Shown here one piece after another: positions 3,918 through 31,708 of a DNA stretch of 64,000 nt. Made by a program: the position numbers and the translations under genes. Under the pieces are notes generated by a model, which was not told the origin of the DNA, ran no database searches, and was given only the letters and a program-made list of their open reading frames with translations. The stretch lies in the IMG/VR virus record IMGVR_UViG_3300001598_000037, positions 26,811 through 90,810 of that record; one strand, given 5' to 3'. Within the stretch, counting starts at the first letter, position 1; each line of letters starts with the position of its first letter. This DNA comes from a virus. Its lineage: Duplodnaviria > Caudoviricetes.

Positions 3918-3954
3918 TCGCTCAAAAAAATTTTAAATAAAATAAGGATTTCAT

Positions 3955-3983
3955 TTGACAAACCGAAATCCATCCTTTATAAT
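3955..3983 (+). promoter_or_regulatory. Sigma-A/70-type promoter
   Basis: TTGACA-17 bp-TATAAT, perfect consensus. Confidence 0.9.
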
Positions 3984-4013
3984 AAGTATAGTAACACATA
4001 GGAGGTGTAAAAA

Positions 4014-4280
4014 ATGGACAAATACTATACGGTAGTTTATCTTTCAGATGGTACAATTCACATGTGGCCTGGAGATACTCAAGATGAGTGTCTTGCAACT
4101 GCTGCTCGTGTTAGAGATAAAAATTCTCCAACATTAAAAGACGGCAGCTTTATTGTTGCCACCACAGTAATTAAAAGAGATCTTGATAGTTTTAAGACTG
4201 TAAAAGATGTACCAATGATATTTGGATCGCCTAAAACTTTAGATGCGATGCAATCAGATTTCAAATATAAGAAAAAATAA
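4014..4280 (+). CDS. Hypothetical protein (88 aa)
   Basis: RBS AGGAGGT; own promoter. Confidence 0.75.
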   Translation: MDKYYTVVYLSDGTIHMWPGDTQDECLATAARVRDKNSPTLKDGSFIVATTVIKRDLDSFKTVKDVPMIFGSPKTLDAMQSDFKYKKK

Positions 4281-4292
4281 TAGAGAAAATGT

Positions 4293-4321
4293 TTGACTTC
4301 TGTATTTTTTTCATTTATAAT
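4293..4321 (+). promoter_or_regulatory. Sigma-A promoter of the replication operon
   Basis: TTGACT-17 bp-TATAAT. Confidence 0.85.
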
Positions 4322-4389
4322 AATAATGCAGGCTAGCAATAGAACTGTATATTTATAAAAAATTTATTTTAAAAAGGAGAATTTTATTT

Positions 4390-5421
4390 ATGGCTGAAGA
4401 AAAAAAGAAAGTATTTAGAAAAAATTTAGTTCGCGTAGAAGGTTATTTAAAAGAAAATAACTTAAAGATCGTTCATGATTCTAAAGGAAACGAAGCGATC
4501 AGCGGATCAGTAATTGTGGCTTTAGATTCAACAAAAGCTCACAAGGTTCAAGTTTATGTAAATAGACTTAAAAAGGACGGCACTGCTAACAAAGATTATG
4601 AAGGTTTTGCTAGTATCCTTCCAACAAACACAATTTCAGTAGCTGCCTATATTCAAAGTAATGGTGAAGCTACAGCAGAAGCTGCTTATGCTCAAGCAAC
4701 AAAAGTATGGATGACTTCTGAATTAGAAGAATTCGTTACAAAAAATGACGAAGGTAATGATATTGGTTATATTACATTAAAAGGTAAGAAAGCTGGTATT
4801 AAGTCTGCTACTGACAAAGTTCCATTCACTCCTCAAGCAAGATTTGATATTGATATGTATATTAAGTCTATTAGAAGAGAAGTTAAAGGCGACGACGAAA
4901 CTGGACGTTTAGATTTAGTTGGTCTTATCCCACATTGGTCTGGAACTATGCAAGAAGTATCATTTAAAGTTAGTGGAGAAAAGATTAAAAATCCTGCTAC
5001 AGGCGAAGAACTTGTAATTAGTGATTATATTGAATCAAATTACTCTGAAGGACAAACTGCTAACTTTACAGGATCTATTATTAATTTAGAAGTAGAATCT
5101 CAAACTGCTTCTACTGGTTGGGGAGATGCTCCAGTATCTAACTCAACTACATTTGTTAGAGAAAGAGTTATTACTGGTGGACATGGTGCTGGTTTAGACG
5201 AAGATAATCCAGGCGCTATCCATGAAGAAGAAGTTAGAGAAGGTCTTATCAACCGTGCAGCTAAACGTGAAGAAAACTATAAAAAGTCACTAGAACGTAA
5301 GAGTGCTGCTGATAACGGCTCTGCTGTCGGCTTCGACACTGGTTTTACAGGATTTGCACCTGCTCCTGCAGCTCCTGCAGCAGCTGGCGAAGGATTCTCA
5401 TTTGATGAATCAGATTTCTAG
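4390..5421 (+). CDS. Putative single-stranded DNA-binding protein
   Basis: 343 aa; Ala/Pro linker and acidic-aromatic tail (GEGFSFDESDF); heads the AAA-helicase-primase cluster. Confidence 0.6.
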   Translation: MAEEKKKVFRKNLVRVEGYLKENNLKIVHDSKGNEAISGSVIVALDSTKAHKVQVYVNRLKKDGTANKDYEGFASILPTNTISVAAYIQSNGEATAEAAYAQATKVWMTSELEEFVTKNDEGNDIGYITLKGKKAGIKSATDKVPFTPQARFDIDMYIKSIRREVKGDDETGRLDLVGLIPHWSGTMQEVSFKVSGEKIKNPATGEELVISDYIESNYSEGQTANFTGSIINLEVESQTASTGWGDAPVSNSTTFVRERVITGGHGAGLDEDNPGAIHEEEVREGLINRAAKREENYKKSLERKSAADNGSAVGFDTGFTGFAPAPAAPAAAGEGFSFDESDF

Positions 5422-5464
5422 GAATAGAATTTGAAATATATATTATATAAAGGAGAATAGAATT

Positions 5465-6553
5465 ATGGCATATGACATTTTTAATCCAGAATATTCCCAA
5501 GTTGTAAAGGGTATGGCTGGAAAAGCATTTTTATTGTATGGTGGCAATGGTGTTGGTAAAACTCTTAATGCTGCCAAAGCTCCAAAACCTTATTTCATTT
5601 GTTTTGAAAAAGGTTTAGGTGCAATCAGTGGTGTAGCTCATGCTAACATTAAAAAGTGGACTGAATTTACTAGTATTGTAAAACAATTTACTTCTAAAGG
5701 CACAATGGAAAAAGCCAAAGAAATGTATCAAACTATCGTTTTAGATGGTATTGAAAACTTAGGTTTATTAGCTGATCCATTTGTTGCAGGTAAATACGGA
5801 GTAACTTCTGTATCCGAAGGTAAAAAAGGTTATGGTCTTTGGAAAGAATTTGAAGACGAATTAAGATGGCCTATCAAAGAATTATGTGATGCAGGATATA
5901 CTGTATTATTCTTAGGTCATGCTGCAGACAGAGATGTTCCTTCTCTTAAACCAAATGAAAAAGGCGAATATAAAGCAAAGAAGCAATTCCCTAAAGGTGA
6001 AAAGAGAGCTATTGATGTTATTATGAACGAATGTGACGTTATTGGTTATATTCAAGCTCAACCATCAGATGTAAGTGGAAACGAAGTATTATCAAAGATT
6101 TATTTTGCTAACAACATCGCTTTCCAAGCAAAAACAAGATTTAAATATCTTCCTAGAACTTTAGATGCTTGGTCTTATGAAAAATTAGAAGCAGCATTAA
6201 AGTGGGCTATTGAAAAGGAAGAATCTGAATCTGGTAAGAAAGCAATTTCTCTTCAAGAATCTTTAGACAAGATCGCTGAAGAAAAAGCAGCAGAAGCTGA
6301 AGATATTATTCCTCTAGACTTATTAGTAGAACGTATCGGTTTAATGTTAATGGATATGAAAGATAAGAAGGGAAATGTATCTGAATTTAAAGAAATCAAA
6401 GAAAAATTAGGATTACCTGATGATTTCAAATGTAATCAAGCGACTGAAGCTCAAAGAGAACATGTTGAAGAAATCTTTGTAGAATTAACTCAACGTGGAT
6501 ATTCTTTCGAACCAAAAGCAGACACAACAACTGCTGAAGAAACAAGTAAGTAG
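5465..6553 (+). CDS. Sak4-like AAA ATPase (recombination / replication initiation)
   Basis: Walker A LLYGGNGVGKT, Walker B TIVLDG, FLGH motif. Confidence 0.75.
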   Translation: MAYDIFNPEYSQVVKGMAGKAFLLYGGNGVGKTLNAAKAPKPYFICFEKGLGAISGVAHANIKKWTEFTSIVKQFTSKGTMEKAKEMYQTIVLDGIENLGLLADPFVAGKYGVTSVSEGKKGYGLWKEFEDELRWPIKELCDAGYTVLFLGHAADRDVPSLKPNEKGEYKAKKQFPKGEKRAIDVIMNECDVIGYIQAQPSDVSGNEVLSKIYFANNIAFQAKTRFKYLPRTLDAWSYEKLEAALKWAIEKEESESGKKAISLQESLDKIAEEKAAEAEDIIPLDLLVERIGLMLMDMKDKKGNVSEFKEIKEKLGLPDDFKCNQATEAQREHVEEIFVELTQRGYSFEPKADTTTAEETSK

Positions 6554-7065: not shown

Positions 7066-8652
7066 ATGGCTGATAATACAAGTTTTGCACATTCAAATAA
7101 AATAGCTGTCATGCATGTATTAGCTGGATTAATTAAGAATCCTCTTTTATTTAGTAGTGACGAATACAAATTCGATGTTAATGACTTCCCAGAGCAATTC
7201 CATAGAATTGTTTTTGGCGCAGTTGAACATTTAGCTATTAATGGAATGGAAAAGATTGATTATATTGATATCGATCAATTCTTGAAACAATATCCAGTTC
7301 AATATAAAGTCTTTACGGGGAATGACGGCTCTGGGTATATTAGCAGAATATTAAAACTTTTTGACGAAAAGAAGTTTGATTATTATTATCAAACAGTCAA
7401 AAAACACAGTTTATTAAATAAATTAAATACACAAGGTATTTCAACTAAGGAAATCTTAGATCCTGAGGAAATTGATCCAACAAAGATCGCAGTGGCTCAA
7501 GAAAAGTTTGATGCCTTATCAGTTAATGATATATTAGATACTGTAGAAAGCAAAATGATTCTTATCAAAGAACAATTCGGCACAAATAGTGATTTAGTAG
7601 AAGATCAAGCTGGTAATGGAATTCTTGAATTAATTGAGAGATATAAAGAAGTTCCTGAAATTGGTCTACCATATGTCAGTCCCAAATTAACAACTATTTT
7701 TAGAGGTTTAAGATTAGGAACATTATATATGGAGAGCTCGGCTCAAGGTGTCGGTAAATCAAGACGTCAAGCTTCTGAATCAGCTCATCTTGCGGTTCCT
7801 GAATATTATGATCTCGAAAAAAAGCAATGGATTAAGACAGGATTTAATGAAAAAGTTTTATTAATTTCAACAGAATTAGAACTTTCTGAAACACAAACAA
7901 TGTGGTTAGCGTATGTTTCAGGTGTTCCAGAAGAACATATTATAGACGGTAAATACCTAGCAGGAGAAGAAGAAAGAGTTATCTATGCTGGTAAATTAAT
8001 TAAACAAGCAGATTTACATTTTGTTAGTATCACTAATTATAACATTGATGATATTATCAATTTAATAAAAAAATACCATCAGTTGAATGGTGTTAATTAT
8101 ATATTTTATGACTACCTTTCTACCACTATTAAAATAATGGCTGAAGGTGCTCGTAAAACTAAAATGACAGGTCTTAGAGAAGACCAAATCTTATTGACTT
8201 TCGTTACCGAATTAAAAGACTTAGCGAAAAAGCTTCAATTATGTATATTTACAGCCACACAATTATCAGGTAACTGGAAAACACAAGAAGCTGACGCACA
8301 GTTATTAAGAGGTGCAAAAGCCCTTTCAGATAAACCAGATGGATGTTCAATATTATTACCTATCAGAGAAAGTGATAAAGAAATTATTGATACATATACG
8401 TCAAAAGGATTTAATTTAATTCCTACACACGTTATCCATGTATTTAAAGTAAGAAGATCACATTATAATAATTTAAAGTTATATGTATATTTTGATAGAG
8501 CAACTTGTCGATTAGTAGATTGTTTCGCTGCCGATAGCAATGGCAATTTATTAGCAATTGAAGATACAAATATTGAATTAATTTTAGACAATACTAAAGA
8601 AACAAAGATCGAAGATGCGATCGGCGATACTTTCGATATTAATGATTTCTAG
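7066..8652 (+). CDS. dnaB: Replicative DNA helicase, DnaB-like
   Basis: Walker A SAQGVGKS, LISTELE, YIFYDYL, FTATQLS, GAKALSDKPD. Confidence 0.85.
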   Translation: MADNTSFAHSNKIAVMHVLAGLIKNPLLFSSDEYKFDVNDFPEQFHRIVFGAVEHLAINGMEKIDYIDIDQFLKQYPVQYKVFTGNDGSGYISRILKLFDEKKFDYYYQTVKKHSLLNKLNTQGISTKEILDPEEIDPTKIAVAQEKFDALSVNDILDTVESKMILIKEQFGTNSDLVEDQAGNGILELIERYKEVPEIGLPYVSPKLTTIFRGLRLGTLYMESSAQGVGKSRRQASESAHLAVPEYYDLEKKQWIKTGFNEKVLLISTELELSETQTMWLAYVSGVPEEHIIDGKYLAGEEERVIYAGKLIKQADLHFVSITNYNIDDIINLIKKYHQLNGVNYIFYDYLSTTIKIMAEGARKTKMTGLREDQILLTFVTELKDLAKKLQLCIFTATQLSGNWKTQEADAQLLRGAKALSDKPDGCSILLPIRESDKEIIDTYTSKGFNLIPTHVIHVFKVRRSHYNNLKLYVYFDRATCRLVDCFAADSNGNLLAIEDTNIELILDNTKETKIEDAIGDTFDINDF

Positions 8653-8663
8653 GAGATACGCTT

Positions 8664-9797
8664 ATGATTTCAGCAGAACAAGTAAAAGAAAAGCTAACAA
8701 CCGAAGATATTATTAAAATTGTATGTAACGATTTCGGATCTCCAGAACCAATCTATGATAGAGAAGACAATCCTATATTTAATACATGTGTTTGTCATGG
8801 TGGAGATTCATACAAACTTTGGTACTATAAAGAATCAAAAACATTTTATTGTTATAGTCACTGTGGACCAATAGGAGATATATTTAATTTAACACAACAT
8901 GTAAAGCATTTTGATACATTCCAAGAGGCTTTTAAGTATGTAATTGCATATTTCCATATTGATACAGGAACTGGATTTAATACGCATCAAGAATTAATTT
9001 CTGACTGGGATATTCTACAACAAGTTGATGACTATGATAAATACAACGACAAACCATCTGAAGAACAAAAAATAATTAATGAAAATATACTAGAATACTT
9101 TGATCCAATATCTGCTCCTAAAGAATGGCAGGCAGATTATATAACACCAGAAATCATGCGTTATTTTGGTATTAGAGTTGATGGTGCATTATCTAAAATT
9201 ATTATTCCTCATAGAAACATAGATGGTAGATTATTAGGCATTAGAGGTAGAACTTATAATCCTATAGAATTGCTTAAAAAGCAAAAATATATGCCAGTGT
9301 TTGTTGAGGGAATAATGTATAACCATAAATTAGGAAGTAATTTATATGGTCTATATGAAAATAAAGAAACAATAACAAGATTAAAGAAAGTATTAGTTTG
9401 TGAGTCAGAAAAATCTGTCTTACAATGTGGAAGTTATTTCGGTCCAGCTAACAATTTTGCAGTAGCTGTATGCGGGTCAACATTCTCACAAGAACAATTA
9501 CAATTATTACTTTCACTAGGCGTTGAAGAAATTATATTCGGCTTTGATCATGATGTCGAATTAAAATCGGGAACACCAGAAACAGAAGAGTGGGAAAATA
9601 AAATCTATAAGCAGATTGAAAAGGCATTACCTTATGTTAATGTATATGTAATCGGCGATTATGATAATATTACACCACTAAAAGCCAGTCCTACAGACTG
9701 TGGAAAAGATATATTAATAACGCTAATGAAAAAGAAGATATATATTCCTTCTGTTCACACAAAAAGTGTTAATAAAATAAGAAAAAAATCAATTTAA
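8664..9797 (+). CDS. dnaG: DNA primase (Zn finger + TOPRIM)
   Basis: CHGGDS...CYSHC zinc motif; IIPHRN...GIRGR; VCESEKS and FGFDHD TOPRIM motifs. Confidence 0.8.
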   Translation: MISAEQVKEKLTTEDIIKIVCNDFGSPEPIYDREDNPIFNTCVCHGGDSYKLWYYKESKTFYCYSHCGPIGDIFNLTQHVKHFDTFQEAFKYVIAYFHIDTGTGFNTHQELISDWDILQQVDDYDKYNDKPSEEQKIINENILEYFDPISAPKEWQADYITPEIMRYFGIRVDGALSKIIIPHRNIDGRLLGIRGRTYNPIELLKKQKYMPVFVEGIMYNHKLGSNLYGLYENKETITRLKKVLVCESEKSVLQCGSYFGPANNFAVAVCGSTFSQEQLQLLLSLGVEEIIFGFDHDVELKSGTPETEEWENKIYKQIEKALPYVNVYVIGDYDNITPLKASPTDCGKDILITLMKKKIYIPSVHTKSVNKIRKKSI

Positions 9798-23599: not shown

Positions 23600-23881
23600 A
23601 TGACATTAAATCATGTAGATGCTATTGTCACACAAGCATTAAAAAAGAGTGGCTATACTAGTGAAAGGAGAGAATCTGTTAGTACTAATTCAATTTATTA
23701 TAAAATTTACAGCTCAAGTGGTTGCGATCTTATGTTCAGAGTTGCTGATCACTCTACTAAGAGCGATGTAATTACGTTAAGAGTAGATAAAAAACTAACA
23801 GAACAATCTATTAAGAATTTTGTAAGTAATAGAGTGGCCGATCTAGGACACAGAGCCTTAAAAAAATTCTTTGGAGAATAA
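23600..23881 (+). CDS. Hypothetical protein (93 aa)
   Basis: RBS AAGGAG. Confidence 0.7.
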   Translation: MTLNHVDAIVTQALKKSGYTSERRESVSTNSIYYKIYSSSGCDLMFRVADHSTKSDVITLRVDKKLTEQSIKNFVSNRVADLGHRALKKFFGE

Positions 23882-23897
23882 AAACGGAGGGGAAAAT

Positions 23898-25085
23898 ATG
23901 AAGAAAAAATACAATCGTATCTATTTAGATGGCGCAGCTAATACTCCCTTAGATAAAAAAGTATTTAGAGCTATGAAACCTTATTTTAAAGATAATTTTG
24001 TAGGCAACTCACATGCGATCCATGAACAAGGCATCAAGGTAATGACAGCTATTGAGGACAGCAGAGCCGAGTGCGAAAAAGCATTAGGATGCGGAGATCA
24101 TCATCAGGTTTTCTTTACTTCTGGCGCAACAGAGGGTAATAACTGGGTAATTAAATCTCTAGCTTATCATGCAAGATCTGATTCTGGCAGCAAACGCAAT
24201 ACAATAGTCTGCTCGGCTGTCGAACACAGCTCTGTGCTCAATACTTGTAAACAACTTGAAACAGAAGGATTTAATGTAATATATGTTAATCCTCGTCCAT
24301 CAGGTAGAATATTTATTAAAGATATTGAAAAAGTAATTAATAATGATACAATTTTAGTATGTTTAATGGCAGTGAATAATGAAACAGGGGTAACTAATCA
24401 TATCAATCAAGTCGCTAAATATGCCCATTTATATAGAGCTTATTTACTTACAGACTGCACTCAAGCGTTAACTTATGGCGGTGCATATACTAAAATTGCA
24501 TCTATCTATTCATCTGCTGATTATTTAACTTTTTCTGGCCATAAAATCTATGGACCAACAGGTACAGGCATTTTAGTTAAACGCAATGCAGCTCCACTAT
24601 ATCCTTTAATTACAGGAGGATCTCAGGAGTTGGGTTTAAGAGGTGGAACACATAATACGGCTGGTATTGTTGGTATCGCTGCGGCTCTTAAATTAATGGC
24701 ACAAAATAGTTATTCTGATCATTTTAATCAATTATATGAATATTTTACTGAACAAATAGATGCTTTTAATAAAGAATATAAAACTAAAATTCACATTAAC
24801 GGAACATTGGGACACAAAAATATTATAAACCTTAATTGTAGTTCAATATATAGGTTTAGTTCATTAGCAAGTTTATTAGATGGGTTTGGATTATCAGTAT
24901 CAGCGGGATCTGCGTGTGATGCTAATGCTGTATCAATTCCATCTCATGTATTATTGGCGATGGGTATCCCATTGGACGATATAGGCAGTTGTATTAGAAT
25001 TTCTTTTACAAAAGACACTACCAAGAAAGATATTCAACAATTTTTCACAATTTTAAAGAAATTATTTGCATTATGGGGAAAATAA
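23898..25085 (+). CDS. iscS: Class I cysteine desulfurase (IscS/NifS)
   Basis: YLDGAANTP, FTSGATEGNN, EHSSV, VNNETG, SGHKIYGP (PLP Lys), GGSQE.GLRGGT, SAGSAC (catalytic Cys). Confidence 0.92.
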   Translation: MKKKYNRIYLDGAANTPLDKKVFRAMKPYFKDNFVGNSHAIHEQGIKVMTAIEDSRAECEKALGCGDHHQVFFTSGATEGNNWVIKSLAYHARSDSGSKRNTIVCSAVEHSSVLNTCKQLETEGFNVIYVNPRPSGRIFIKDIEKVINNDTILVCLMAVNNETGVTNHINQVAKYAHLYRAYLLTDCTQALTYGGAYTKIASIYSSADYLTFSGHKIYGPTGTGILVKRNAAPLYPLITGGSQELGLRGGTHNTAGIVGIAAALKLMAQNSYSDHFNQLYEYFTEQIDAFNKEYKTKIHINGTLGHKNIINLNCSSIYRFSSLASLLDGFGLSVSAGSACDANAVSIPSHVLLAMGIPLDDIGSCIRISFTKDTTKKDIQQFFTILKKLFALWGK

Positions 25086-27666: not shown

Positions 27667-28017
27667 ATGGTTAATCAAAAAATTAGAGAATATTTTGCAG
27701 AATTAAGTAAGGAAGTAGAAGAAGAAATCTACTTCTTAGATAACCAAGCATATGATAATAGCATTATTGGATATACTGAAGATTATCGTTTAATCTATAG
27801 TTACGAACGTATGGTAGAAGAATTATCTCAAGAATATTTAGACTCTGATCCTGAACTATCTCAAAGCGAAGATGAGTTAGTTCGTGAAGAAGCTTGCGAT
27901 AATGCATATACAGATGCAATTGAATGGATTGACTATAATACTATGGCTTTACCTTATTTAGGCGATCGAGCTCCAATTGTTATACATGAACTAAATAAAG
28001 GAGAATTTGATGAGTAA
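27667..28017 (+). CDS. Hypothetical acidic protein
   Basis: YDNSIIG...LIYSYERMVE...AIEWIDYN...PYLG motifs. Confidence 0.7.
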   Translation: MVNQKIREYFAELSKEVEEEIYFLDNQAYDNSIIGYTEDYRLIYSYERMVEELSQEYLDSDPELSQSEDELVREEACDNAYTDAIEWIDYNTMALPYLGDRAPIVIHELNKGEFDE

Positions 28018-28582
28018 GAGTTATAGAAATATGAATTTAGACGATTTCGATGAATATGGAGAATATGACGATGTCGTTACATTTGAAAAATTACGCGGAG
28101 GATCTAAAAAGAAAAAAAGTAAAGGTCATCAATCTCGACATCAAAAAAATAAATATGATGAATATGATAGTTATGACGAAATAGTGTCAGAATTGCCAAC
28201 AGTACCTGTTATTCCTCAAACTGTGGTGCAAAATCCTGTGGATACGGAGAGGGGTACGTCACCAGACGCATCGAAAACTGTCCAGACAGGTAATCATGCA
28301 TCTCATTTGACTACAGAGCGCCATGAATTGGTTAAAAAACCATTTGAATTCGGGCCAAACACTCATGAATTGATGGGAAACAAAATTGACTATGATCGAG
28401 TAGCTAATTTAGAAACTATCGAATCTGAATATAAAGGAAAACAAACTTTTGGTATTAAGTTTACTTTTAAAGGTAAAAATGCTAGTACTCGTGTAATCTG
28501 GTATAATCAACATCAAAGAGAACGTGATATGATTTTTGCTCAGGAATATAAATTCTGGTTATCTGTGAGAACTGCTAATTAG
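28010..28582 (+). CDS. Hypothetical protein with low-complexity acidic/basic N-terminus
   Basis: RBS AAGGAG; 190 aa. Confidence 0.7.
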   Translation: MSKSYRNMNLDDFDEYGEYDDVVTFEKLRGGSKKKKSKGHQSRHQKNKYDEYDSYDEIVSELPTVPVIPQTVVQNPVDTERGTSPDASKTVQTGNHASHLTTERHELVKKPFEFGPNTHELMGNKIDYDRVANLETIESEYKGKQTFGIKFTFKGKNASTRVIWYNQHQRERDMIFAQEYKFWLSVRTAN

Positions 28583-28591
28583 AGATTTTAA

Positions 28592-28620
28592 TTGACAAAG
28601 CAGTTTATATCATTTATAAT
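28592..28620 (+). promoter_or_regulatory. Sigma-A promoter driving the non-coding segment
   Basis: TTGACA-17-TATAAT, perfect consensus; no ORF of 60 aa or more for about 420 nt downstream. Confidence 0.9.
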
Positions 28621-28624
28621 AATT

Positions 28625-28995
28625 ATAGGGTAGCAATCCCTTGCTGAGTGATCAGCCTATGTGCGCAGTAGAAAAACCACTTAGGCACGGAGTGAAGATA
28701 TCGTGCACCTGATTTGTTTATTACAGGAGATGCTAGCATTACTCCTGTATGTGAGGGCACAGGTTATGCTTGTGTTCTCTTCTCTGTCCACAATGTCGGA
28801 TAAACTCCACTATATGGAATGTTAGTAGGTTCGACTCCTACTGTGGGCACAATCTTCTGAATAAACCGCTTAGCAAGTGGAACTAGAAGAAAAAGGAGTG
28901 AGACCCCTCCGATAAGCGTGGTCGAAAAATAGGAGCGACAAGGTTGCTGGATAGCAGTAGACGAAAGTCGAGAATCCTGTCGCTCTTACGCATTT
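28625..28995 (+). ncRNA. Large structured non-coding RNA, family unknown
   Basis: At least 8 stems, three GNRA-type loops (GCAA, GTGA, GAAA), GC-richer than flanks, starts at the predicted TSS. Confidence 0.7.
28786..28852 (+). ncRNA. tRNA-like domain with reduced D and anticodon arms
   Basis: 7-bp acceptor GTCCACA/TGTGGGC, T-arm GTAGG-TTCGACT-CCTAC, GG in a short D-like loop; only 32 nt between acceptor 5' strand and T-arm; ends ACAA. Confidence 0.7.
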
Positions 28996-29045
28996 TATAT
29001 ACCTTAAATAAAATGGTGATTTTATTTAAAGAATTTGGGGGTTAA

Positions 29046-29237
29046 ATGATTAATATGAATTACTATATTCAATGTGCACGACAAAGTGGCAAAACTTATA
29101 TGATTCTTAAAATCCATGAAATTCAATTGGAGCTTATGAAAGATCTTGATCACAAGCCAACCATAGACGAATATATTTATTATTATAATTTAGCTATCGA
29201 AAAATATTTTAATCCAGAAAATAAAAATAAGAGGTGA
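29046..29237 (+). CDS. Small protein with a P-loop-like fragment
   Basis: CARQSGKT in 63 aa. Confidence 0.55.
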   Translation: MINMNYYIQCARQSGKTYMILKIHEIQLELMKDLDHKPTIDEYIYYYNLAIEKYFNPENKNKR

Positions 29238-29241
29238 AAAC

Positions 29242-29409
29242 ATGACAGAGCAAATTCTAGGAATTATATGTATCATAATACTTAGTCTAATAATGTTGAT
29301 CTCTTTATTTGCGTTAATACTGTCGATCGTCATTACATGTTCGGAAGATCCAGTTATTAGTGTTTATAAAAAGAAATTAAAAGAATTAACCAAGGAGGAC
29401 AAAAAATGA
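29242..29409 (+). CDS. Small membrane protein (55 aa, not in ORF track)
   Basis: RBS GAGGTG; MTEQILGIICIIILSLIMLISLFALILSIVI...KKKLKELTKEDKK. Confidence 0.7.
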   Translation: MTEQILGIICIIILSLIMLISLFALILSIVITCSEDPVISVYKKKLKELTKEDKK

Positions 29410-29714
29410 GAAGATCATTTTTACAAAACAGTTTTAAAACTCAAGAATATTTAAAGACGCTCCCAAAAATCTATTTAATTGCTTGTTGGGCACATTATGG
29501 TATAAAAGAATTCCCACTACATAGTTGGAAGCAGGACGGAGCTGAAATGATCCCTATGGTTTATGACTATGATGATTTCAACGGCACTCAAGATTTATAT
29601 ATACTTAGAGACATCCGAAATACCACGAGCGGTGGCAAAGTAATGTGGACTATGCACAAAGAGATCGCTGAGAATATTGTAGCGGCATTAAATAAACAAC
29701 ATGAGGTGAATTAA
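29406..29714 (+). CDS. Hypothetical protein (102 aa)
   Basis: RBS GGAGG, ATGA overlap. Confidence 0.7.
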   Translation: MRRSFLQNSFKTQEYLKTLPKIYLIACWAHYGIKEFPLHSWKQDGAEMIPMVYDYDDFNGTQDLYILRDIRNTTSGGKVMWTMHKEIAENIVAALNKQHEVN

Positions 29715-30976: not shown

Positions 30977-31708
30977 ATGAGTAAAACATTTCACTTATAT
31001 AAAACAGATTACTATTATGAACATCAAAAACTTTATAATAAAGATATTCTAACTTTAGAAGAAAATAATATCTATTGTATTGTAGGCTGTAATGGTGTCG
31101 GCAAATCTACTGCATTATTTCAAATAAAAACACTTTTAAATAAAGACTGTTTTGATTTAAAAGATAAATTATCATTCAGTTTAAGAGGTATCTTTAGTGA
31201 TGCAAAAGCTCCTGAAGAATATAATGAATATTTCTTAATTGGGGATTTACATACTAAATTAGGTTTTAAAGAAGAAGATTTCTTAATGCAAGATATATTT
31301 AATGCTCAAAGCTCGACAGGAGAACAAACTATAAATAAATTAGTTCCTATACTAGGCAGTCTGCAAAAAACGCTTGATTTAATTAAAAATAAAACCGTTT
31401 ATTTATTAGTAGATGATCTTGATGTAGGAGTTAGTATTGATGTTCTTCGTGAAGTTAATGCCATCTTTGATCGAATTATTACTTTCTTAAAAAAGAACAA
31501 TATTACTTATTATATTATTATAACTGCCAACAGTTATGAACTTACTAAAAACAAAACATGTATTGACATTATCAACATGGCTCCAATTCAATTTGAAGAT
31601 TATGAAGATTATTCAAATTATATTGCTGCTACTAGAAAACATAAAAATAAATGTCTAGCATATGCTGATAAAAAAATAGCCGAAGCAAAGGGCAAGGAGG
31701 ATAAATAA
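30977..31708 (+). CDS. Soluble ABC/AAA-type ATPase
   Basis: Walker A GCNGVGKST, signature-like SSTGEQ, Walker B/D-loop LLVDDLDVGVS. Confidence 0.75.
   Translation: MSKTFHLYKTDYYYEHQKLYNKDILTLEENNIYCIVGCNGVGKSTALFQIKTLLNKDCFDLKDKLSFSLRGIFSDAKAPEEYNEYFLIGDLHTKLGFKEEDFLMQDIFNAQSSTGEQTINKLVPILGSLQKTLDLIKNKTVYLLVDDLDVGVSIDVLREVNAIFDRIITFLKKNNITYYIIITANSYELTKNKTCIDIINMAPIQFEDYEDYSNYIAATRKHKNKCLAYADKKIAEAKGKEDK

Follow-up and report, generated by a model that had tools for sequence, protein, structure and literature searches.

We found that a tRNA-like element embedded in a noncoding RNA of an uncultured phage is derived from a tRNA that has lost its decoding half. The RNA is modular, with a 5′ module A, a variable linker, and a 3′ module B, and the element fills a slot in this linker where tRNAs are exchanged. 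The element cannot decode and is unlikely to be aminoacylated. The reading that we prefer, to which we give about an even chance, is that it works as a processing signal for RNase P and RNase Z in a longer transcript, in the manner of the t-elements of plant mitochondria. The analysis demonstrates the shape of the element, its rarity by chance, its descent from a tRNA as judged by position, and its inability to pass as a tRNA; we infer both the predicted cleavages and the selection that would keep the surviving half.

The 64,000-nt stretch of DNA that was analyzed (the window) comes from a 90.8-kb viral contig in IMG/VR (G000), estimated to be 66% complete. Its source is a distant SPbeta-like uncultured phage: the DnaE-type polymerase is 36% identical to YorL of SPbeta. 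The element sits in a 463-nt stretch without reading frames between plus-strand genes, and this stretch opens with the promoter of the RNA and folds well beyond its shuffles (z = -3.95). The RNA predicted here is about 370 nt long (~28627 to ~28995), promoter driven, and ends with a terminal stem (Table 1). A 34-nt stretch elsewhere in the window (4305-4340, or G000 31115-31150; L002) is 83% identical to the promoter region of this RNA gene and probably serves as a further strong promoter of this kind.

Table 1. Features of the predicted RNA and of the tRNA-like element, in window coordinates
Feature	Position	Strand	Details
Sigma-70 promoter TTGACA-17-TATAAT	28592..28620	+	12/12 consensus; predicted start near 28627
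Hairpin CUAU-GUGCGCA-GUAG	28657..28671	+	7-nt loop = one base + palindrome UGCGCA
Module A: AAAACCACUUAGG + hairpin GCACG-GAGUGAAGAUAU-CGUGC	28673..28709	+	34/35 identical to L016, 31/36 to L018
Two linker hairpins	28723-28748 and 28753-28779	+	second terminator-like, then UUCUCU
tRNA-like element	28786..28849	+	D-like region 28793-28805; hairpin 28806-28818; T-arm 28825-28841; discriminator A 28849
Module B: AUCUUCUGAAUAAACCGCUUAGCAAGUGGAACUAGAAGA, stem UCUUCU/AGAAGA	28852..28890	+	matches L018 9035-9098
RNA 3′ part	28895..28998	+	hairpin GGAG-UGAGACCC-CUCC, UAAGCGUGGUC, closing stem 28932-28986 round two small hairpins, AUUUUAU

The element reads GTCCACA-ATGTCGGATAAAC-TCCACTATATGGA-ATGTTA-GTAGGTTCGACTCCTAC-TGTGGGC-A and is followed by CAA. 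In its acceptor stem, GTCCACA (28786-28792) pairs with TGTGGGC (28842-28848) through 7 bp, six of them Watson-Crick and the other U2.G71, and the perfect T-arm, GTAGG-TTCGACT-CCTAC, abuts the 3′ acceptor strand exactly as it does in a tRNA and carries the GGTTCRANYCC motif as GGTTCGACTCC (28828-28838). The discriminator is an unpaired A, the letters after it being CAA and not CCA, position -1 is U, and pair 3-70 is C3-G70 rather than G3.U70. A sequence-only reading of this DNA had described the same acceptor and T-arm anatomy (a 7-bp acceptor, a canonical TTCGACT T-arm stacked on it, and a 3′ A-CAA), and we can endorse it, as well as its view that the element is more than a bare attP tRNA fragment, a candidate that is ruled out because both acceptor strands are present. 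No integrase was found among the scanned flanking reading frames, which belong to replication or unknown genes.

The remainder of the element is of a different quality. Acceptor and T-arm are separated by 32 nt, compared with about 41 in a tRNA, and this interval consists of ATGTCGGATAAAC, which contains GG, the hairpin TCCA-CTATA-TGGA, and ATGTTA. The D-like region of 13 nt forms no real D stem and at most 2 bp, a proposed stem that is too short to be judged, position 8 is A where a tRNA has U8, and the "anticodon" hairpin can be read in two ways, with a 5-nt loop on 4 bp or with 5 bp, a C.A mismatch among them, and C in the place of U33. All of these lesions (about 9 nt missing in the D region, A8, C for U33, and the C.A mismatch) fall within the D/anticodon half, while the acceptor and T-arm are canonical in 12 of 12 stem pairs and in all 7 bases of the T-loop. 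The element thus lacks the features expected of a whole tRNA (U8, a D stem of 3 to 4 bp, and an anticodon stem of 5 bp that carries a 7-nt loop with U33) and possesses a 7-bp acceptor abutting a 5-bp T stem with a TTCRANY loop; it also has what characterizes a t-element, namely, a noncanonical cloverleaf with an acceptor and GGTTCRANYCC inside a longer predicted transcript. In tRNA character, one half of the element equals a real tRNA and the other falls short.

Automated searches gave a corresponding picture. With ARAGORN, neither the window nor the complete 90.8-kb contig yielded a tRNA call, relaxed thresholds included, and at -ps60 to -ps90 the element was still not called as a tRNA; the earlier reading had anticipated a pseudogene call or no call. 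On the plus strand, the Rfam tRNA model RF00005 (threshold, 29 bits) found nothing at E ≤ 10. The sole Rfam match at the element was Plastid-ycf2 on the minus strand (27.1 bits), a model that effectively sees an antisense acceptor/T-arm and with which real tRNAs of L018, L023, and L027 score 23.5 to 31.1 bits. As for tmRNA, there was no ARAGORN call in the window or contig at the default threshold, no match to the Rfam tmRNA model, and no tag reading frame; permuted tmRNA calls that appear at -ps80 or lower are spurious and do not use the acceptor/T-arm of the element.

How often such a shape would arise by chance was estimated with a pattern that required a T-loop of the form TTCRANN, a T stem of five Watson-Crick pairs, and, directly adjoining it, an acceptor of 7 bp (no more than one of them G.U) whose other strand lies 20 to 49 nt upstream. 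It occurs once in the window, compared with a mean of 0.008 per 64 kb on both strands in 1,000 first-order Markov shuffles; a looser pattern with any number of G.U pairs has an expectation of 0.18, and the chance argument rests on the quality and context of the match, not on its mere presence. When the element is folded alone, the acceptor has a probability of ~1, which drops to 0.14 to 0.18 in the fold of the full 369-nt RNA, where competing pairings are favored, and folding energy alone therefore does not establish the structure of the element. An exact 25-mer of its T-arm and acceptor has no match in IMG/VR, and neither the window RNA nor module A has a match among GenBank phages, in which the 3′ half of the element matches only the generic T-arm/acceptor of various tRNAs. 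No relative with the same truncated element was found, so that covariation or conservation does not support the element itself.

What identifies the element as tRNA derived is the company that its flanking modules keep. A pattern made from the flank of module A retrieved locus L016, another pattern retrieved L018, and homologues of the protein encoded upstream in L016 led to five more loci. Module A lies 5 to 8 nt upstream of real tRNAs in L016, L018, L024, and L027: in L016 a tRNA-Met (55.5 bits) begins 7 nt downstream of it, in L018 it stands between tRNA-Val and tRNA-Thr, which are followed by tRNA-Ile(UAU) and tRNA-Gln, and in L024 and L027 it is followed after ~8 nt by tRNA-Met and then by a conserved, reading-frame-free stretch of 450 to 900 nt in which module B appears in a short form. 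This short form, UGAAUAGUACUAGAAGA, is found in L016 and its close relatives, and the full module B begins 3 nt past the element in the window and 109 nt past tRNA-Gln in L018. The layout of module A, zero to three tRNAs, and module B is thus shared by the window, L016, L018, L023, L024, L026, and L027, and because the element occupies the position of real tRNAs in RNAs that share its flanking modules, we regard it as evidently tRNA derived. The distance from module A to the element in the window is 76 nt, compared with the 5 to 8 nt to tRNAs elsewhere, and a terminator-like hairpin lies between them; no counterpart of the two linker hairpins was found in L016 or L018.

The slot itself gains and loses tRNA cassettes, since L023 and L026 carry an identical scaffold in which the tRNA and ~45 flanking nt are missing and the slot is empty. 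Between L023/L026 and L024/L027, the tRNA-Met (~3920-4040) is a presence/absence polymorphism in otherwise collinear scaffolds, and L016 has a different tRNA-Met at the equivalent place together with an extra insert of ~300 nt. In L018, two segments (9359-9395 and 9625-9677) look like the halves of a class II tRNA, possibly Leu UAA, with the acceptor GCGGGAC/GUCCCGC-A-CCA and the T-arm GCCGG-UUCGAGU-CCGGC; the ~230 nt that part them at the anticodon loop may be a group I intron, and no Rfam intron model matched at E ≤ 1. Two further pattern matches (L015 and L017) proved to be chance matches in coding DNA, and a match to an 18-mer of module B (L019) was a chance match inside a structural gene. 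Relatives of the proteasome-like gene of L018 (L031 to L034) have big tRNA arrays and neither module A nor module B.

Some members of this group possess a still smaller tRNA shape. An element of 49 nt, with a terminator on one side and the beginning of the long RNA on the other, is present in L016 (3133-3085, minus strand), L023 and L024 (3712-3760), L025 (1725-1773), L026 (1102-1150), and L027 (3717-3765). It consists of a 7-bp acceptor (GCUAGUG paired with CACUAGU, CACUGGC, or CACUAGC), a 14-nt linker containing GG, the T-arm ACAAG-UUCAAUU-CUUGU, A, and CCA, without a D or anticodon arm. It is unchanged where its flanks have diverged, and the changes in its acceptor (U72 to C and A70 to G) all keep the pairing.

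The flanking modules show the conservation of a structured RNA. In the module A hairpin, L018 differs from the window by one compensatory pair (C-G to U-A), and the conserved block upstream of the element spans 28657-28709 when the hairpin with the palindromic loop is counted with module A. Toward the 3′ end, window positions 28852-28914 match L018 9035-9098 with 75% identity over 65 columns (E = 5e-8), and homology with the other family members is established only as far as module B. For the structure of the RNA as a whole, the evidence comes from three diverged lineages. A possible long-range pairing of CCACUU in module A with AAGUGG in module B has two invariant strands and a ViennaRNA probability of 0. 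Short matches between the window and L018 (AGCGACAAGG and TAGACGAAAGT; E of about 1 to 3) were not significant, and a reading of module B as an HDV-like or other ribozyme was rejected because, even though the helix order can be forced, there is no rightly placed catalytic C and no Rfam ribozyme match.

The loop of the hairpin that precedes module A changes from lineage to lineage. Its hexamer is UGCGCA in the window (28662-28667; hairpin, 28657-28671), UUGCAA in L016 (hairpin, 2975-2961, minus strand) and its close relatives, and CUGCAG in L018 (hairpin, 8401-8418), and all three are self-complementary despite the change in sequence, which suggests loop-loop pairing between copies of the RNA, possibly as in ROOL and GOLLD oligomers. 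A second, diverged unit of a palindromic-loop hairpin and a CCAC...UUAGG hairpin was seen in L027 (4490-4560), L028 (3800-3860), and L016 (~2250-2230, minus strand); it has the covarying stems CCAGU/ACUGG and CAAGU/ACUUG and lies upstream of tRNA-Met in L028.

Sequencing runs that share any of the window RNA came only from animal, mostly ruminant, gut samples, and the best word share of any run with the window phage was 0.04, with module A only. Contigs of four animal-gut runs are identical to 28673-28709 letter for letter and diverge on both sides. Their upstream flank is a hairpin with compensatory changes, and the letters that follow module A resemble the 5′ ends of tRNA genes; three or more distinct tRNA-like 5′ ends occur there, and in one case a protein gene. 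Contig breaks at module A in an RNA run are assembly-graph branch points and not RNA ends.

A second line of comparison concerns the genomic place. Ten related large phage contigs were gathered through an Aminotran_5-type gene (a putative cysteine desulfurase; 23871-25085), and the gene that immediately precedes the RNA has a homologue in 7 of these 10 syntenic contigs. In L004, L011, and L012, a tRNA-Ser(GCU) follows this homologue within ~90 nt, with more tRNAs beyond, and in the other contigs with the homologue a protein gene comes next instead. The place is thus a tRNA landing site in this phage group. The window RNA is absent from these syntenic contigs and from the distant syntenic loci L013 and L014, and no close relative of the protein encoded upstream of it was found. 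In global alignments, the best match of the element is tRNA-Thr(GGU) of L012 and L004, with which it shares the anticodon stem UUCC/GGAA and the T-arm GTAGG-TTCGA.T-CCTA; the acceptors differ, and a source isoacceptor is not established by this resemblance. Within the same phage group, ARAGORN calls a SeC(tca) in L003 (20045-20144) and a Pyl(cta) in L006 (18772-18845), possible stop-codon suppressors that hint at recoding. L013 (5466-6481) has 1 kb without called genes that is unusually G+C rich and GT/GC repetitive in an A+T-rich contig. Relatives thus carry normal tRNAs at the equivalent place, both in the module-sharing RNAs and after the homologue of the upstream gene, an outcome that the earlier reading had itself named as speaking against its tRNA mimic and for a decaying tRNA gene; the element is therefore tRNA derived and not a mimic of independent origin.

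Our preference for a processing signal, which the earlier reading had also proposed and which remains the most economical function, stems from the observation that the surviving parts are those that RNase P and RNase Z reportedly need. In bacteria, both enzymes recognize a substrate in which an acceptor is placed on a T-arm, and both cleave acceptor/T-arm minihelices. Among the parts that are reportedly recognized, the element keeps a 7-bp acceptor in coaxial stacking with a T-arm of 5 bp whose loop is canonical, a GG in the D-like loop that could hold the elbow, the U at -1, and the unpaired A discriminator without CCA. Cleavage by RNase P would occur at 28785/28786 and cleavage by RNase Z at ~28849/28850, and the ~370-nt transcript would then be divided into a 5′ piece of ~160 nt with module A, a tRNA-shaped RNA of ~64 nt that could receive CCA, and a 3′ piece of ~145 nt with module B. 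Several observations speak against a selected role: the slot may be empty, as in L023 and L026, the element is without a relative of its own, it lies far from module A behind a terminator-like hairpin, and the fold of the full RNA does not favor its acceptor.

The main rival is a young and functionless tRNA pseudogene, in which a deletion in the D-arm and a few substitutions would have occurred and there would have been too little time for further decay. This explanation is a serious one that we consider less probable than a processing signal. It draws on the freedom with which the slot gains and loses tRNAs, on the ordinary tRNAs near the locus in syntenic relatives, on the likeness of anticodon-stem and T-arm residues to tRNA-Thr(GGU) of L004 and L012, and on the failure to find a relative with the same truncated element. 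By a rough estimate, the probability that ~4 lesions would all fall in the D/anticodon half by chance is ~0.1, and the intact acceptor/T-arm may only mean that the damage is recent. Three observations nevertheless speak for more than a fresh pseudogene: the lesions are confined to one half, L016 and its close relatives maintain the 49-nt element of acceptor, T-arm, and CCA, and the contig, which has no canonical tRNA according to ARAGORN, contains a second crippled tRNA shape. That shape (G000 ~1036-1138; L030), called neither by ARAGORN nor by Rfam, combines the T-arm GGAGG-TTCGATC-CCTCC with a 6-bp acceptor and GCCA; its D loop is of the Leu type, it has a long extra arm, and its anticodon hairpin is closed by a 4-nt loop.

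We consider it improbable that the element, free or tethered, attracts a protein that binds the acceptor, the elbow, or the CCA end, whether as a decoy or as a handle. Candidate partners would be a defense toxin targeting the CCA end or acceptor, the enzyme that adds CCA, or an SmpB-like protein that binds domains of the tmRNA type. Phages reportedly counter tRNA-targeting defenses with their own tRNAs, these phage RNA loci contain two or three shapes of this sort, and the acceptor, the stemless GG loop, and the T-arm are reminiscent of the tRNA-like part of tmRNA. Against this, no gene for a partner was identified, C3-G70 stands in place of G3.U70, CCA is not encoded, and at the default threshold ARAGORN calls no tmRNA in either the window or the contig. 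The decoy for anticodon nucleases, synthetases, or T-box riboswitches that the earlier reading put forward found no support. A decoy for anticodon nucleases in particular is unlikely, since these enzymes need the anticodon loop and this is the part that was lost. Least credible is an assembly artifact, in which the real phage would have a normal tRNA and ~9 nt were dropped: the contig does come from a metagenome assembly, but length alone would not account for position 8, position 33, and the anticodon-stem mismatch, and the other tRNA-like element of the contig is also aberrant.

Beyond the preferred reading of the element as a processing signal, our results lead us to a more tentative reading, that the window RNA, L016 with its close relatives, and L018 form an undescribed family of modular phage RNAs that carry tRNAs or stubs in an internal slot, that the stub is selected as a processing mark or a tethered handle, and that the scaffold oligomerizes through its changing self-complementary loop hexamer, much like the ROOL and GOLLD cages. 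Window positions 27800-29600 have no GOLLD or ROOL covariance match at E ≤ 10 in Rfam, which includes both profiles, and the RNAs of L016, L018, L023, L027, and L028 match no Rfam family at E ≤ 1 to 5. In the same contig, 21.6 kb ahead of the start of the window, lies a bona fide ROOL RNA (G000 5174-5753; L030/L035), which matched the full-length model at 263 bits (cut-off, 99), and the GOLLD/ROOL test therefore works. The window RNA is thus a second structured RNA of this phage, distinct from its ROOL RNA.

Among known systems, the tRNA-like domain of tmRNA combines an acceptor and T-arm with a stemless, GG-containing analogue of the D-loop and has no anticodon loop. In the element, unlike in tmRNA, the two halves are contiguous around a hairpin of only 13 nt, and there is no tag frame, G3.U70, or CCA. 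The bacterial Y RNA-like YrlA is a noncoding RNA with a tRNA-mimicking module that is permuted, with a loop-closed acceptor and ends at the position of the anticodon stem; the Rfam YrlA model has no match here. The mascRNA that is cut from MALAT1 is a comparable tRNA-like processing product. The closest functional parallel may be the t-elements of plant mitochondria, noncanonical tRNA-like folds in longer transcripts that are experimentally supported processing signals (PMC1920247). Like the element, they keep an acceptor and a GGTTCRANYCC T-arm and serve as a signal for RNase P/Z cleavage and not as an adaptor (PMC1920247). The t-elements and mascRNA are organellar or eukaryotic and have experimentally mapped ends, whereas the element belongs to a bacteriophage RNA for which we infer cleavage.

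With respect to layout, the nearest described RNA is GOLLD, a large structured RNA of phages and prophages in which a 5′ part and a 3′ part are joined by a variable linker that sometimes holds tRNAs, and GOLLD and ROOL are both found at phage tRNA islands. The resemblance is one of layout only; the window RNA has no Rfam match, is only ~370 nt long, and carries a defective "tRNA." For the question of why GOLLD and ROOL occupy tRNA islands, sometimes with internal tRNAs, this locus offers a small and tractable example of ~370 nt: it looks like a third such family of large phage RNAs, with the embedded tRNA reduced to the part recognized by processing enzymes. Should the element prove to be no more than a pseudogene, the locus would still be a record of tRNA cassettes being rapidly gained and lost within a conserved RNA scaffold. 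If the stub is cleaved, the embedded tRNA would serve the maturation of the RNA into two pieces, which may stay associated, instead of the supply of adaptors for translation, and the t-element principle would extend from organelles to phages.
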